IMG/VR virus record: IMGVR_UViG_2609459769_000020
Strand: one strand, 5' to 3'
DNA from: a virus
Taxonomy: Duplodnaviria; Heunggongvirae; Uroviricota; Caudoviricetes
DNA: 10,526 nt
Shown: piece by piece, positions 4,567 through 10,526 of the stretch
How the letters are laid out: the number at the start of each line of letters is the position of its first letter
Numbering within the stretch: position 1 is the first letter of the stretch
The notes under the pieces: generated by a model
Databases searched by the model: none
What the model saw: the letters and a program-made list of their open reading frames with translations, nothing else
Told to the model about the DNA's origin: nothing
Position numbers and translations under genes: made by a program

Positions 4567-5097
4567 TTATTTATTCAGTCCGGCATCCTGTTCAAAAGGC
4601 TCGACATAAAAACTTTCAGCGCCTTTATTCACCTTTATACCGGCAATGCCTTTCACCGCATCCGGCTCCGCCAGGACGGCTTCCTTGTTCACTTCCTCTT
4701 TCGTGCGGATGAATCGCTCAAGCCCCATACGGCGCAGCGTGTCAATCACACCTTCCACATCACGGCTGACGCTGCATGATGGCGTTCCCAGCCGCCATGA
4801 CACCGTTCCGGTGGTCAGATTGGCAGTTTTGGTTTTGCCGCCGTTCGTCAGCTCATCACGGTTGGTTTTACACCAGTCCTGAATCCCTTTAAAAAGCACT
4901 TTGATTTGCTTTTTAAGATTTTCAATCTGCGGCGTATAACGGGCGGTGATTTCTGCCACTTCATCATTCATCGCCGTTTCCAGGCGCAGCGCCTCTCGCT
5001 GAATATCGCCCAGGGTGCGGATATCGCGGCTGACTTCTTCGCGGGTCTGCGGTGCGGCCTCGGCTACAGCCTTTAATTTTGTAACGCGTTTTGCCAT
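4567..5097 (-). CDS. gam: Host-nuclease inhibitor protein Gam (Mu Gam family, Ku-like DNA-end binding)
   Basis: ORF-track protein (176 aa) MAKRVTKLKAVAEAAPQTREEVSRDIRTLGDIQREALRLETAMNDEVAEITARY...CKTNRDELTNGGKTKTANLTTGTVSWR...ERFIRTKEEVNKEAVLAEP...EPFEQDAG closely matches my recollection of Mu Gam in length and in the LQREA.RLE.EMND, NRDELTNGGK.KTANL, RFIRTK.E.NKEA and PFEQ.AG blocks. SD AAGGA upstream. Confidence 0.8.
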   Translation of the reverse strand: MAKRVTKLKAVAEAAPQTREEVSRDIRTLGDIQREALRLETAMNDEVAEITARYTPQIENLKKQIKVLFKGIQDWCKTNRDELTNGGKTKTANLTTGTVSWRLGTPSCSVSRDVEGVIDTLRRMGLERFIRTKEEVNKEAVLAEPDAVKGIAGIKVNKGAESFYVEPFEQDAGLNK

Positions 5098-6449: not shown

Positions 6450-7391
6450 TCACACCTGTGAGAGTAATTCAGGGTTGGTATAAACCTCTTTAAAGGCCGC
6501 ATTAATATGTTTTTCTGTCAGCGCCGCGCCTTCACCGCTGGCGGTGAGCCACGCCTGGTTAAGCGTATGTGTCAGAACGCGTAACGCTCCCGGCTTTTCA
6601 GCGATAGCCTGCATGACGGCCAGCTCGGCCTCACCACTGATCCCCCACGCCATGGCAATGGCCAGCACATCCGCCTTTTTGGCCTTGCGAAGTTGTTTTG
6701 TACGGGCAAGACGGCTGAACAGGCGCGATAAATCATCAAAGGCGCGGCGTCCACCTTTAAACAATCCGCGCGGGTTACCAATAAGCACCATCCCGATCCC
6801 CGTGGCGTCCTGAATTGCCCGGAGTTGCTCCAGACCGTCAATACCAAGATGATCCGCCTCATCCACAATCACCAGTCCACGCGTTCCCATCAGGCGACGG
6901 CGGATGGCGCGGGATAATGCCCCTTTGTTCGCGCGGGTGTAATCAATCCCCAGCGCATCGGCCAGCTCCAGCAGACACTCCGTGACGCTGGAGTGCGCGG
7001 GTGACAGGGTGATCATCCAGGTGTTTGGTTGCTCCTGGCAGTAATTACGGGCAGTGGCCGTTTTACCCACACCCGGTACGCCCACAATAACGTTAATACA
7101 GCCCATCAGGCGAACCGCCTGAAACAGTGCGCGCAGCTCCTGGACTGTCTGAGTTTCCACAAACTGCGGCGGTTCCGGCAGTGCGCTTTGTTTATTCCAG
7201 TTCTCATACCAGGAGCGCAGGGAAGCAGCCACAGCAGCGTTATCGCCTTTATATTTTCCCTTACGGAAAGCCGATAATGTGCCGTCGGAAATTCCCGCCT
7301 CTCTGGCGATGGCATACTGCGTCAGTACGCCGCCATCAATAAGTTCATCAATGGTCTTGATTACATCGTTAATATCGGTCATATTATTCAC
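6450..7391 (-). CDS. B: Mu B-like ATP-dependent target DNA activator (AAA+ transposition ATPase)
   Basis: ORF-track protein (313 aa). Walker A GVPGVGKT and Walker B LVIVDEADHL are present, and the N-terminal HTH-like segment and overall length match my recollection of Mu B (312 aa). The track start is GTG at 7391; an ATG at 7382 preceded by GAGG may be the true start. Confidence 0.85.
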   Translation of the reverse strand: MNNMTDINDVIKTIDELIDGGVLTQYAIAREAGISDGTLSAFRKGKYKGDNAAVAASLRSWYENWNKQSALPEPPQFVETQTVQELRALFQAVRLMGCINVIVGVPGVGKTATARNYCQEQPNTWMITLSPAHSSVTECLLELADALGIDYTRANKGALSRAIRRRLMGTRGLVIVDEADHLGIDGLEQLRAIQDATGIGMVLIGNPRGLFKGGRRAFDDLSRLFSRLARTKQLRKAKKADVLAIAMAWGISGEAELAVMQAIAEKPGALRVLTHTLNQAWLTASGEGAALTEKHINAAFKEVYTNPELLSQV

Positions 7392-7464: not shown

Positions 7465-9555
7465 TCAGGCCAGCGGATCACTTTCTTTTAATTTCGCTTC
7501 GAGCAGTTGCAATCCCCGCTGGAAATTACGCTCGTATTCTTCATCAGGTTCATCGTCAGCGACCGGTTGCTGAACGGTCACCGTATTACCCACAGGGCGG
7601 TATATGTTTTCCAGCCAGGGCTCCTGCGGCTTGTGCTCCAGCACGTTGACAACCTCATCCTCGGCATCACGGATTTTTTCCTCTGCGCGTTTACGCATGC
7701 CTTTAAGGCGCTGCTGCTGTTTGTAGTATTCCGCGCTGACAGGGAAGGCTTCGCGTTTATTGCCGTCCCATACCGCCTCGCAAATCACGCTGCCATCCGG
7801 GCGGCGCACGGTAATTCGTTCGGCATCATGAATGTCATAGCTGATAAGTACCTTACGGCCATGCTCGTCACGCAGCTCGGGCGCGTAGTAAATATTATTC
7901 AGCCAGCGTATTTCACAGCGTCTTACAGGGCGCTCCACCATCGGCCGGAACATATCCCGCAGTTCAACATCGGACAGCCATTCAATTTCCGTGTCCTCTT
8001 CCGCCAGGCGTTTTTTTCTGAACTCCGCCGGGCTGTAATGTTTACCGTTCGGCTTCATGGGTAATTCATCGTGCGGCCGGTTGTTGTACCACTCAACACC
8101 GTCACGAATGGCATCAATCAGTTCAGACCAGGACGGTAAATCACGCATCGCTGACTGCTGCCGGGCGTTCAGCCGTTTGCCCTGTTGCAGGGCACTGAAT
8201 GCCGAGCGTAAATCGCGGTTGGTTTTACGTAACGTCTCGCGATCTGCTCCTTTCCCGAAATAGGTGCGGTATTTACGGGCTATGCGCATCGGTAATGTGC
8301 GGTTAAGCCGTTCGATAATGCCCCGTCCCTGCGGATTACCGGCAATCCCTGTCGGGTGATTAATCCCCAGTCGTGGCAGTATCCCCACAATCTCCTTATC
8401 CAGGACGTCGGCGGTTTCCCCGGAGCCATTATCCGAGTAATACAGAAACGGTTTGCCATGATGGCGAATACCGTGCTGTATGGCACCGGCTACGGCGAAA
8501 ACATTTTCAGCCAGGTCAAGACTCCAGCCCACCACAAAGCGCGTGCCACCGTCGATAACAAAGGTCACTTCCGGTGCGAATGGCCGCCCGTGAACCGGGT
8601 GCGCGCATTTCAGCTTCATGCCGTGACCGTCACCAATCCAGACATAATTCACCGGCATTCTGGACCAGTCGCGGCGCGTGAATCCCTCAAGCTGACGGTA
8701 TTCACTGCCAGTTACCCGGCCTTTTTGTTTCACCACTTCCGGCAGTTTCTTCATTGCGCGGCGAATGGTGTCATAAGAGGGCATGATATCGAGCATATAA
8801 GGCTCATCAGCGTGCCGGTGCTGCCATTCAGCAACAAAATCCTCGTAAGCCTCGGTCATTGGTCGGCCGTTTGACTGGCGATACTGCGCCAGAAATTCGG
8901 GCAGCCAGTTAATATCTTCGGCTTTTATTTCCTGGCGTTTACCCGGTGCCAGTAAAAGCAGGCGTTCAGCGGCGTTCTGTGCCTTGTTAAAGGCCGCAAT
9001 CCAGCGTTTCAGCGTGATTTCACTCAACGCGCGGCTGTTTCCCTTTTTGGCGTTCGCCGTCTCAACCATTGCCACAATGCGCTCGTCCAGTTGTGATCGT
9101 GCCAGGCTGTTAACGAGGAACCGGATAGCCTTAGCGCAACTAAAGCCGGGTTGTTGCGCGATTTTCAGCACCTCGCTGACGATCGCTATTCGTGCCTCTG
9201 CCACTTTACGTTGGTTTTCAGTCAGGGCATTGAGGCGTTCGACCATCAGTTGGGGTGATCCGCGATATGCCTCCACCGCATCAACCACGGCAGGTGAGCG
9301 TCTGGCCTTTGTCACCACCGGAGCCGGTGATTCATCGGCTTTTTGCGTCATCAGTTGCAGGGCGTAGCGTTCACGTAATGCCTGCTGCGTCACTTCAGGT
9401 AAACAGTCGATGCTGTATTCAGTTGCTTTAGAGCCTGAGCGACGACGGGAACAACAGCTTTTCCCTTGTACGTAACGTTGTAATGCCTGGCGAATACCTT
9501 TTGTTGTAGCAGGCATTCCGGGCGCGCCAATCAGTTCTTTTGCAATGACATACAT
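7465..9555 (-). CDS. A: Mu A-like DDE transposase
   Basis: ORF-track protein (696 aa). Candidate catalytic DDE triad in the segments WIGDGHG, YYSDNGSG and GRGIIERLNRTL, with spacing consistent with the Mu A/retroviral-integrase fold. Position is immediately downstream of ner (the ner stop and A start are 1 nt apart). Confidence 0.85.
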   Translation of the reverse strand: MYVIAKELIGAPGMPATTKGIRQALQRYVQGKSCCSRRRSGSKATEYSIDCLPEVTQQALRERYALQLMTQKADESPAPVVTKARRSPAVVDAVEAYRGSPQLMVERLNALTENQRKVAEARIAIVSEVLKIAQQPGFSCAKAIRFLVNSLARSQLDERIVAMVETANAKKGNSRALSEITLKRWIAAFNKAQNAAERLLLLAPGKRQEIKAEDINWLPEFLAQYRQSNGRPMTEAYEDFVAEWQHRHADEPYMLDIMPSYDTIRRAMKKLPEVVKQKGRVTGSEYRQLEGFTRRDWSRMPVNYVWIGDGHGMKLKCAHPVHGRPFAPEVTFVIDGGTRFVVGWSLDLAENVFAVAGAIQHGIRHHGKPFLYYSDNGSGETADVLDKEIVGILPRLGINHPTGIAGNPQGRGIIERLNRTLPMRIARKYRTYFGKGADRETLRKTNRDLRSAFSALQQGKRLNARQQSAMRDLPSWSELIDAIRDGVEWYNNRPHDELPMKPNGKHYSPAEFRKKRLAEEDTEIEWLSDVELRDMFRPMVERPVRRCEIRWLNNIYYAPELRDEHGRKVLISYDIHDAERITVRRPDGSVICEAVWDGNKREAFPVSAEYYKQQQRLKGMRKRAEEKIRDAEDEVVNVLEHKPQEPWLENIYRPVGNTVTVQQPVADDEPDEEYERNFQRGLQLLEAKLKESDPLA

Positions 9556-9556
9556 A

Positions 9557-9805
9557 TCATGACGCCTTTCTCATATAGCTCTTAACCTGGTATCGACTGG
9601 GCCAGATTTCTTCAGGTGATACCCCAAGAGCATCAGCAATTATTTGCTGATACGGTCGGCAAGGAGTACGTAATACGCTTTTCAGCGAATCCCTGCTGTA
9701 ACCAGCCTTTAAAGATAAAGAGCGCAGTGATAAGCCAGCCATGTGTAAGCGCGCCTTGATGATTTCAGGCGGCCAATCGTGATCTGAAACTTCTCTTCTA
9801 CTCAT
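9557..9805 (-). CDS. ner: Ner-like DNA-binding protein (Mu Ner / E. coli Nlp family)
   Basis: ORF-track protein (82 aa) ...DWPPEIIKARLHMAGLSLRSLS...QQIIADALGVSPEEIWPSRYQ... matches the recalled Ner/Nlp pattern, including the C-terminal IWPSRY block. SD GAGGAAG upstream of the ATG at 9805. Confidence 0.8.
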   Translation of the reverse strand: MSRREVSDHDWPPEIIKARLHMAGLSLRSLSLKAGYSRDSLKSVLRTPCRPYQQIIADALGVSPEEIWPSRYQVKSYMRKAS

Positions 9806-9995
9806 ACTTCCTCTATTCTAAAAAGTTACCCGCGCGGATATTCGTGCGGATATCTGTACGGGTAAATAATGCATCACCAAAAATACCAAATCAAGGTATT
9901 TTTGGTATTTTGGCTAATTTTTGCTTTTATCCTTATTTTTCAATTGGATAAATAGAAAGAAACCTTTCCTTAGAAAAGCACCAAGAGGTATCTTT
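9806..9995. promoter_or_regulatory. Divergent repressor/ner control region (operators and promoters for early and repressor transcripts)
   Basis: A 190-nt AT-rich gap between divergent regulator genes. It contains a tandem 8-bp direct repeat GCGGATAT (9834..9841 and 9846..9853) and a perfect 12-bp inverted repeat plus a further half-site copy. A TAGAAT -10-like hexamer sits on the minus strand just upstream of the ner SD. Exact promoters were not resolved. Confidence 0.6.
9876..9906. repeat. Perfect 12-bp inverted repeat ACCAAAAATACC-N7-GGTATTTTTGGT, candidate operator
   Basis: Read directly: 9876..9887 and 9895..9906 are exact reverse complements with a 7-nt spacer. A third direct copy GGTATTTTGG overlaps at 9904..9913. 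Confidence 0.6.
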
Positions 9996-10526
9996 ATGTC
10001 GCAGGGAAAAGAACCTGTTATTGAACGTATTGGAATGCTTACAAAGCGCTACCCTTCAAGAAGTGCAGCTGCCAGAGCGTGGGGAATCAATATCAACACA
10101 TTAAACAGCTATTTCAAGGGAGGACAAACACAACCAGCCCCCAGAGAAAGTATCCTTATACGAATTTCTGAAAGTGAAGGCGTTAGTCTTGAGTGGCTTA
10201 AAGAGGGCAAGGGTGAATTACCAAACGATATTGGTATTTATGGTAATTTTGGTTGTTCTGGTGATAAGGGAGATCAGCTTACACAGATGCTTTCATTCCT
10301 TACGAAAGACGAACGAGAACAGTTAACCAATCTCCTTGCTCGCAAAGGTGTGGAGACGGTTCTGACACTGCTGAATAAAGAAAACCAGGATTTATTACAA
10401 CTAGAAGGCAGGAAGCGCCTGGCTGCGTTGATGATTGTAGATATGCCAGACGATTGCGTCAGAGAGATTTTGGAAAAAACCGAGACAAGTAGGCAATCAA
10501 ATCCGGTAGAATCTAAAGCGGGTTAG
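9996..10526 (+). CDS. Prophage repressor (functional and positional analogue of the Mu/D108 c repressor)
   Basis: The track ORF 9921..10526 has an internal ATG at 9996 preceded by SD AAGAGG, which I take as the start (176 aa, MSQGKEP...). N-terminal HTH-like segment with GVSLEWLKEGKGE, typical of phage repressors; the C-terminal helical region loosely resembles the Mu c C-terminus. Divergent from ner. The TAG stop falls on the last three bases of the window. Confidence 0.7.
   Translation: MSQGKEPVIERIGMLTKRYPSRSAAARAWGININTLNSYFKGGQTQPAPRESILIRISESEGVSLEWLKEGKGELPNDIGIYGNFGCSGDKGDQLTQMLSFLTKDEREQLTNLLARKGVETVLTLLNKENQDLLQLEGRKRLAALMIVDMPDDCVREILEKTETSRQSNPVESKAG

Follow-up and report, generated by a model that had tools for sequence, protein, structure and literature searches.

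A repressor-linked palindrome and a ner-proximal dyad at the putative lysis/lysogeny switch of a Mu-like prophage of Escherichia coli

The window analysed here, a stretch of 10,526 nucleotides from the Caudoviricetes record IMGVR_UViG_2609459769_000020, is the early end of a Mu-like transposable prophage, as judged by its open reading frames (ORFs) and Pfam matches. The same evidence shows that a repressor gene and a divergent ner gene adjoin the left end of the element, followed after ner by transposase A and ATPase B. Two families of repeats lie between the repressor gene and ner: a palindrome and, closer to ner, a dyad-symmetric element of 40 bp. In four independent natural module swaps among relatives, both palindrome arms were exchanged together with the repressor, whereas Ner and the ner-proximal element were kept. 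This is strong indirect evidence that the palindrome is the operator of the repressor. We consider it likely that the region is the core of a lysis/lysogeny switch, in which the repressor would act on the palindrome and on auxiliary sites, and Ner on the dyad. The feature that seems worth an experiment, as far as sequence can tell, is an immunity-specific copy of the operator in the codons of the repressor's own linker.

The palindrome and its overlapping third copy are located as follows (all coordinates refer to the window unless another sequence is named):

9873-9909, no strand: predicted primary operator of the repressor, with core ACCAAAAATACC (9876-9887) / GGTATTTTTGGT (9895-9906)
9904-9915, plus strand: tandem third right-arm unit, located 9 bp downstream of the right arm itself (GGTATTTTGGCT)

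The original prediction, made from the letters of the window, had described this palindrome with an extra half-site and an 8-bp direct repeat closer to ner, and all of these repeats are present where it placed them. The arms ACCAAAAATACC and GGTATTTTTGGT are 100% complementary across a gap of 7 nt. A perfect inverted repeat with arms of at least 12 nt and a gap of at most 12 nt arose in 5 out of 5000 Markov-1 simulations of positions 9806-9995 (a chance of about 0.001), and the pair at 9876-9887/9895-9906 is the only inverted repeat of that size in the 10.5-kb window. The sequence TTGGTATTT has exactly three copies in the window, all inside 9881-10239. The third copy of the arm (GGTATTTTGG, 9904-9913) overlaps the right arm by 3 nt and gives a second, shifted dyad (9880-9890 / 9901-9911).

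We compared this region across about 25 distinct related loci. These include the phages VW-6B (L002), Tongde (L003, a Yersinia phage) and vB_YpM_5 (L015), loci from E. coli, Shigella, Pantoea, Sodalis and other genomes (L004-L014), and IMG/VR viral contigs (L016-L039). The alignment among relatives is ungapped from the ner start codon through both repeat families, which are conserved at a fixed distance from that codon. A lack of conservation among relatives, which the original prediction had named as grounds for refutation, is seen for neither family. Two E. coli loci, L013 and L032, share with the window a Ner of 100% identity, a MuA N-terminus of 96% identity and an unchanged 40-bp dyad. 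Their repressor has only 43% identity to that of the window, and in place of the two palindrome arms they carry AACAAAAGAACC / GGTATTTTGTTC. The swap recurs independently three more times (L003 versus L033, L035 and L039; L004 and L027 versus L036; L011 versus L028). In every pair the break in homology falls between the dyad and the left arm, i.e., between the repeat families. Since each exchange of the repressor brings new arms and leaves Ner and MuA as they were, Ner and the transposase are excluded as partners of the palindrome. The swaps thus bear out two proposals of the original prediction, that the two repeat families serve two different proteins and that the palindrome belongs to the repressor.

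The operators of these elements are of two types, which pair with different helix-turn-helix (HTH) sequences in the repressor. Type A has arms of 15 bp, with the consensus ATCACCAAAAATACC-N7-GGTATTTTTGGTGAT, and goes with repressors reading SRSAAARAW...TL(N/K)SY(F/Y). Type B has the consensus GAACAyAAAAAGAAC-N9-GTTCTTTTTrTGTTC and goes with SR(S/N)(E/Q)AA.AW...TLQNYYKR. Compensatory changes in the two arms are found in L004, L008, L006 and L009, and within type A they read ACG...CGT in L004 as in L008, while L006 carries an additional A:T in each arm. The operator is hence dyad-symmetric and co-varies with the repressor HTH, as expected of a CI/Cro-type repressor. In most type-A relatives the right arm is followed by a GGTwATTT-like unit, which in L019 forms a perfect repeat. 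Two other assignments of the palindrome were considered and rejected. An exchange of roles, with the palindrome for Ner and the dyad for the repressor, fails on L013, which keeps Ner and the dyad and changes the repressor and the palindrome. A role as transposase enhancer fails on the same locus, where the arms are replaced despite the near-identity of the MuA N-termini.

The palindrome also overlaps a candidate early promoter, Pe:

9894 to 9889, minus strand: candidate -35 hexamer of Pe, TTGATT, inside the 7-nt palindrome spacer
9871 to 9866, minus strand: candidate -10 hexamer of Pe, CATTAT, the positional orthologue of the -10 hexamers found by a promoter scan in L036, L033 and L011

In these three relatives the scan called minus-strand promoters with the -35 hexamer in the palindrome spacer each time (TTGACA-17-TATGCT in L036, TTGACA-17-TATTCT in L033 and TTGATT-18-TATATT in L011). 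The candidate of the window consists of TTGATT, 17 nt and CATTAT. Nearly all relatives keep TCAA in the spacer, which on the ner-ward strand is TTGA, the start of the -35 hexamer. The start site of Pe is predicted near 9859 on the minus strand. With the left arm as promoter spacer and the dyad centre as -35, bound repressor should therefore exclude RNA polymerase.

The ner-proximal repeats are part of a larger symmetric element:

9826-9865, no strand: 40-bp dyad-symmetric element of four half-sites, containing the GCGGATAT repeats
9826-9832: half-site TTACCCG
9835-9841: half-site CGGATAT
9850-9856: half-site ATATCTG
9859-9865: half-site CGGGTAA

The repeat GCGGATAT occurs at 9834-9841 and 9846-9853, with TCGT between the copies, and once more in the window, at 5017. 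An exact 8-bp direct repeat at such close spacing was seen in 520 out of 5000 simulations and is not significant alone; it is credible because it is conserved in relatives. The tandem repeat of the original prediction is thus real, but it is the core of the 40-bp dyad and not a stand-alone unit. Another reading divides the dyad into three tandem units of 12 bp (CGG at 9835, 9847 and 9859), which explains why a direct repeat was seen there. Outer inverted arms flank the core (TTACCCG ... CGGGTAA in the window), and the 19-nt arms of the element are 79% complementary in the window. The dyad sits at a fixed offset in all relatives, and the region is a perfect palindrome in some of them (GGATAACCGCGCGGTTATCC in Tongde; CGGATATCCG-GT-CGGATATCCG in L009, a Shigella/E. 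coli relative). Treated as one nested global dyad, with 19 pairs in 18 sequences, 81.9% of the cells are complementary and double changes number 21, against 9.8 in shuffles (0/500 shuffles as high). A division into two independent 16-bp palindromes was rejected, as these do not co-vary and the nested dyad does. The element spans about -6 to +34 of the predicted Pe. Its type follows the Ner clades, with GGATAT in the DWP-type and GGATAA/GGTTAT in the DWH-type, and it is invariant where Ner is identical (heteroimmune L013). Given its position, its symmetry and the precedent of Mu and D108, the dyad is probably the Ner operator, placed over the predicted early start site. The original proposal, which gave the direct repeats to Ner or a host factor, fits this position and this analogy as regards Ner; the comparative data, for their part, do not separate Ner from the N-terminus of the transposase. 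Correlations of pairwise identity were dropped as a means of telling the two apart, since Ner and MuA are always co-inherited.

The repressor that would bind the palindrome combines domains of different kinds:

9996-10526, plus strand: repressor, 176 aa, matching PHROG 3037 'transcriptional repressor' with E 6.7e-61

It is composed of a CI/Cro-type HTH domain (residues ~8-70), a disordered linker (~74-90) and a Mu c-like C-terminal domain (~91-174). The Mu c family, PHROG 7148, is matched by residues 91-174 (E 1.5e-10). Mu c itself matches both this family (E 6.9e-73) and PHROG 3037 (E 1.1e-4). A direct hhalign comparison of the repressor with Mu c gave E 1.8e-4 at a probability of only 49%. 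On these matches, the C-terminal domain is homologous to that of Mu c. In Mu, the C-terminal region of c mediates multimerisation. For the N-terminal domain, PF07022 is matched by 20 out of 39 homologues (best E 6.9e-6), the protein of the window falling below threshold. The AlphaFold model has a five-helix N-terminal domain and a linker (residues 78-90) with a predicted local distance difference test score below 50. The best local Foldseek matches, none of them significant, are the N-terminal domain of 186 CI (probability 0.90, E 0.13) and 434 Cro; searches of solved structures and folds with the repressor likewise gave no significant match. The repressor has no match to PF02316, which MuA does match (E 2.2e-6), and a BLASTP comparison with the MuA N-terminus showed no similarity (E 23). 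No Peptidase_S24 match was found in the protein of the window or in the 39 homologues. By these comparisons the N-terminal DNA-binding domain is CI/Cro-type, not Mu c-type: the DNA-binding domain has been replaced while the Mu c C-terminal domain was kept.

Units resembling the operator recur in the codons of the linker:

10216-10265, no strand: distal operator-like cluster, in repressor linker codons 74-90, ~350 bp from the centre of the primary dyad
10216-10224: cluster unit AATTACCAA
10233-10244: cluster unit GGTATTTATGGT
10242-10253: cluster unit GGTAATTTTGGT
10259-10265: cluster unit TGGTGAT

Two units of the cluster match the right arm at 11/12 positions and are spaced in tandem by 9 bp, as at the palindrome. 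When the operator of each lineage was compared with the body of its own repressor gene, the best 12-mer match fell in codons 75-89 in 15 out of 16 lineages, at 334-387 bp from the operator. The matches are also type-specific: type-B genes show 0.44 mismatches when set against type-B operators and 2.08 when set against type-A operators; for type-A genes the values are 1.41 with type A and 2.03 with type B. The motif occurs in different frames and on either strand, where it codes for different peptides. In L013, its own arm GAACAAACAAAAGAAC recurs as GAACAAACAAAAAGAAC inside the wholly different linker peptide MKKEPIEQTKRTKKQ, and in Tongde an exact ACCAAAAATACC lies on the other strand, in an ENTKNTKHGD linker. 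The codons TCA-CCA and GGT-GAT are invariant across proteins that are only ~50% identical. We put at about even the chances that the linker-coding DNA doubles as an immunity-specific distal operator, which would make a three-part immunity cassette and allow a loop of ~350 bp, a self-roadblock, or both. The original prediction had looked for the operators between the two genes. They are found there, but they do not seem confined to that interval, given the in-gene copy and an inverted repeat at the repressor start codon that is described below.

Several observations weigh against this account. A literature search found no papers describing these operators and gave no binding, footprint or transcript data for this element. 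The window's own Pe scores 8/12, just under the threshold of the promoter scan, and was not called. The promoter of the repressor was not located: the scan of the window and three relatives returned no intergenic plus-strand promoter, and a candidate picked by eye (TTGGCT-18-TATTTT, 9909-9938) scores only 8/12 and overlaps the third operator copy. The similarity of the dyad tracks residues 1-80 of MuA as well as it tracks Ner (Spearman 0.60 vs 0.57). Concerning the distal cluster, the position test gave a binomial P of 2.6e-12 with lineages treated as independent, a value that overstates the significance because the 16 lineages are related. Single-lineage matches are often unremarkable against codon-shuffled controls (from 0/500 to 263/500), the linker is A/T-rich like the operator, and the linker of VW-6B (L002) has no match with two or fewer mismatches to a 12-mer of its own operator. 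Since single matches are weak and the linker is A/T-rich, the case for a distal site rests on consistent position and type specificity. Instead of an operator, the cluster at 10216-10265 could result merely from the composition and rapid evolution of a linker of low complexity, or be left over from recombination where the domains meet, the intergenic sites being sufficient. We find this unlikely. The controls just cited favour it, as do the richness of the linker in A/T and in Lys, Pro and Gly and the partial conservation, as amino acids, of the ESP and GD residues encoded by ATCACCA and TGGTGAT. Yet a by-product would not readily account for a best match in the same 15 codons in nearly all lineages, for a motif that switches type with the operator although its frame and strand vary and the peptides it encodes are unrelated, or for an invariant choice of codons in such divergent proteins.

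The association of the dyad with MuA is also what one would expect if the dyad were the transposition enhancer, bound by the N-terminal (Mu I-alpha-like) domain of the transposase, and not the Ner operator. The enhancer would then have been split from the operator, the repressor and the transposase no longer sharing a DNA-binding domain. MuA does keep the PF02316 N-terminal domain that the repressor lacks, so that a separate enhancer is needed somewhere, and the dyad is unchanged in heteroimmune pairs with a shared MuA. We nevertheless judge this reading improbable. The global symmetry and the covariation of the arms suit a small symmetric HTH protein; the sites of Mu I-alpha, a domain that binds as a monomer, are asymmetric repeats, whereas D108 Ner has a pair of inverted repeats as its operator. 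The dyad also covers the predicted start of Pe just upstream of ner, the place at which the Ner proteins of Mu and D108 act (as in the Mu annotation). Besides, the two roles are not mutually exclusive. Far less credible still is a role of one or both dyads as RNA hairpins, with the 40-bp element as a leader hairpin or attenuator and the palindrome with its T-run as a rightward terminator or attenuator. The scan does call the palindrome terminator-like on the plus strand, and the dyad core terminator-like in L033 and L036; the ner leader of the window folds somewhat better than shuffled sequences (z -2.07), and an RNA stem would show compensatory changes too. But since the palindrome loop holds the -35 hexamer and transcription is predicted to start inside the dyad, Pe would transcribe neither hairpin in full. 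Moreover, it is the sequences of the arms that are conserved, not merely their pairing; they co-vary with HTH residues, and single arms recur in the gene. The cells that are not Watson-Crick pairs show no G-U excess on the early strand (23 G-U vs 45 A-C), and on this wobble-pair asymmetry test an early-strand hairpin at the dyad was rejected. The palindrome stem has only 4 G-C pairs, and an Rfam search gave no match.

From these patterns we infer binding by the repressor and by Ner, and the switch could work as follows. Pe would read leftward into ner, A and B, with its -35 hexamer in the palindrome spacer and the left arm as promoter spacer. The repressor, bound to the palindrome as a symmetric oligomer, would keep RNA polymerase off Pe and thereby maintain lysogeny. 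The tandem copy (9904-9915) and the in-gene copy (10216-10265) would serve as extra repressor sites, which multimers formed through the C-terminal domain could occupy cooperatively, probably by looping the ~350 bp of DNA. Occupancy of the auxiliary sites might tighten repression, let the repressor throttle its own gene, or both. Ner, placed on the 40-bp dyad, would damp early transcription once the lytic path has been taken. If the in-gene site is real, it would be a clean natural case in which one piece of DNA holds a protein linker and a regulatory site that evolve together. The linker would tolerate almost any sequence, so that the protein's own binding site can be written into the gene, and a change of HTH specificity would carry along both the intergenic operator and the in-gene copy. 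Operator, HTH domain and in-gene operator would then form a portable cassette, repeatedly exchanged among enterobacterial Mu-like prophages.

The region resembles Mu in its gene order next to the left end, and in the Ner, MuA and MuB homologues and the Mu c-type C-terminal domain. A further resemblance would be an operator that overlaps the early promoter, as the candidate Pe and the promoters called in three relatives suggest. Copies of the repressor site inside the repressor coding sequence, putative here, would also be common to both: in Mu we confirmed copies of CTTTTYNRW at 891-930, in the first codons of c, and at 980-1027. The left end carries three transposase-type repeats, at ~25, 120 and 172 bp, as in Mu. 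The differences concern the DNA binder and its sites. The DNA-binding domain is a CI/Cro-type HTH, whereas Mu c shares a winged helix with MuA; the operator is a long palindrome with arms of 12 to 15 bp, whereas Mu has arrays of asymmetric CTTTT repeats (O1-O3). Unlike in Mu, an extra site would lie in the linker-coding region, ~350 bp away. A motif search gave no consensus site for integration host factor (IHF) between the sites of the window, where a conserved candidate, described below, has 2 mismatches. The region shares no sequence similarity with the operator of Mu or with its Ner sites. The overlap of operator and enhancer known from Mu, with repressor and transposase competing for one site, is not to be assumed here, and the Mu paradigm of a repressor and a transposase that share a DNA-binding domain and a site is not universal among close Mu relatives. 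The original prediction had suggested a Mu-type switch with element-specific operators, to be compared with O1 to O3 of Mu and D108. The layout agrees, with divergent repressor and ner followed by A and B; the analogy does not extend to the sequences or to the repressor, which is not a Mu c-type DNA binder. Overall, that interpretation is partly supported, being right in its main point and wrong in some of the anatomy.

Ner sites provide a second comparison. The Ner operator of D108 consists of two 11-bp inverted repeats with an 8-bp A/T-rich spacer, and the Mu Ner site of 12-bp repeats. Here, too, a small HTH protein of the Ner family goes with a symmetric site of several parts, placed between its gene and the candidate early promoter, and CGG triplets recur every 12 bp (9835, 9847, 9859). 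The half-site differs (TTAyCyG / CGGATAw), as does the number of half-sites, four over 40 bp, and Ner binding is putative here. By eye, 9826-9865 does not resemble positions 1020-1075 of Mu. The Pseudomonas phages D3112 and B3 and other Mu-like phages combine a Mu-like transposition module with a lambda/CI-style HTH repressor divergent from a ner-like gene. Phages of the D3112/B3 type (cf. phage Fc02, PMC9936078) share with this element the module and the layout with a CI-like repressor. The PHROG 3037 family differs from them in keeping the Mu c-type C-terminal domain and in being enterobacterial. SfMu was considered as a member of the family and rejected because it has a D108-type repressor.

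The proposed arrangement of sites also has parallels in looping systems, such as OL-OR of lambda, 186 CI with FL and FR at ~300 bp from pR, and the intragenic sites lac O2 and gal OI. Like them, the region would pair a main operator at the lytic promoter with an auxiliary one at a distance of a few hundred bp, here within a gene, and would use an oligomerising repressor. The N-terminal domain of the repressor is weakly similar to that of 186 CI (the Foldseek and PF07022 matches given above). Unlike in these systems, the candidate auxiliary site is part of the codons for the disordered linker of the repressor itself and varies with the immunity type, and looping is putative. The C-terminal domain also sets the repressor apart from those of 186 and lambda, as it is Mu c-like and without an S24 peptidase domain.

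A further group of repeats surrounds the start of the repressor gene:

9974-10015, no strand: start-of-gene cluster of AAAAGCACC (9974-9982), GGTATCTTT (9987-9995) and AAAAGAACC (10007-10015)

This inverted repeat with a third copy straddles the ribosome-binding site and the ATG of the repressor. In relatives, where it lies in codons of an N-terminal extension, the repeat is near-perfect, e.g., AAAAGAACG-N4-CGTTCTTTT in L008. The middle arm, GTTCTTT, is present in 9/9 type-B and 2/9 type-A elements (Fisher 0.002). The cluster could be a third operator, at the position of Mu O1, a hairpin in the start region of the messenger RNA, or the result of coding constraint. The repressor ORF is open upstream to a TTG at 9921 (9921-9998), and the residues LRKAPRGIF encoded ahead of the annotated ATG correspond in the alignment to MRKAPQGSF, with which the repressors of relatives begin. 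This alignment indicates that the lineage of the window, together with L006 and L007, lost the ancestral start codon and starts ~10 codons later, behind an AAGAGG Shine-Dalgarno sequence. Within the gene, the differences between repressors of 96-99% identical copies (the window, L001 and L014) concentrate in the linker, at 10216-10262. The variants are ELPNDIGIYGN, ESPNDVGICGN and ESPKDIGISGD, none of which has lost the GGT/TGGT cores of the motif.

To the right of the palindrome, positions 9895-9940 contain five T-tract units with a 9-bp period (GGTATTTTT, GGTATTTTG, GCTAATTTT, TGCTTTTAT and CCTTATTTT), which could bend the DNA in phase, provide further weak sites for the repressor or serve as an UP-like region of a promoter. 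They are followed at 9941-9954 by a TCAAT-N3/4-(A/T)TA motif, fixed at ~45 bp from the right operator arm in most relatives. Compared with the IHF consensus, WATCAANNNNTTR, it is perfect in L009 and L037, and the copy of the window deviates at 2 positions. One possibility is an IHF site like the one between O1 and O2 of Mu, another a part of the repressor promoter. With at most one mismatch, the consensus is matched within 9806-10526 at 9889-9901 (1 mismatch) and at 10091-10103 (perfect, coding); the whole window has five such IHF-like matches, fewer than expected by chance. The perfect one, TATCAACACATTA, is roughly midway between the primary operator and the in-gene cluster, in codons of the conserved GININTLN helix.

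The genes of the early operon in the window are the following:

9557-9805, minus strand: ner, 82 aa, first gene of the early operon (Pfam HTH_35, E 2.5e-19; PHROG 769)
7465-9555, minus strand: MuA-like transposase (Mu-transpos_C and HTH_Tnp_Mu_1)
6450-7391, minus strand: MuB-like ATPase (Phage-MuB_C)

Ner is 43% identical to Mu Ner (E 3e-14). Most likely the element is a Mu-like transposable prophage of E. coli of an ordinary kind, common in E. coli O157. The last 1 kb of the window is 98.9% identical to L001, a 'Mu-like phage' inside Stx1a- and Stx2c-converting phages. Among 5,426 complete E. coli genomes, 116 have the region over at least 80% of its length, and O157:H7 accounts for many of these. 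The element is probably the Sp18-type prophage of O157 Sakai (PMC2669165). Sp18, a Mu-like prophage of that strain, is reportedly not inducible by mitomycin C (PMC2669165). A heteroimmune sibling (L013, L032, L034) circulates in ~74 E. coli genomes, in an 84% band: its ner and dyad are identical, its transposase is near-identical, its repressor is 43% identical and its operator is different. In the search for this sibling, some genomes had two places matching the query. With the element in at least 116 of the 5,426 complete E. coli genomes and heteroimmune relatives in 70 or more others, knowledge of the operators, early promoter and immunity types would make induction, superinfection immunity and mobilisation testable.

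In L001 the element ends ~250 bp past the repressor stop codon, which is the end of the window. The original prediction had proposed to look for the same half-sites near the ends of the element, and the last 250 bp of L001, at the left end, contain none. What that stretch past the window does contain, at 4105-4260 of L001, are three (A/G)GTATCAAA repeats, at 25, 120 and 172 bp from the left end; they are also found in the heteroimmune L013 and in Tongde. Their spacing resembles that of the transposase sites L1-L3 of Mu. Elsewhere in the window, the sole other perfect inverted repeat with arms of at least 10 nt (10-nt arms, 8-nt gap) is at 4889-4916, among small ORFs of the early region.

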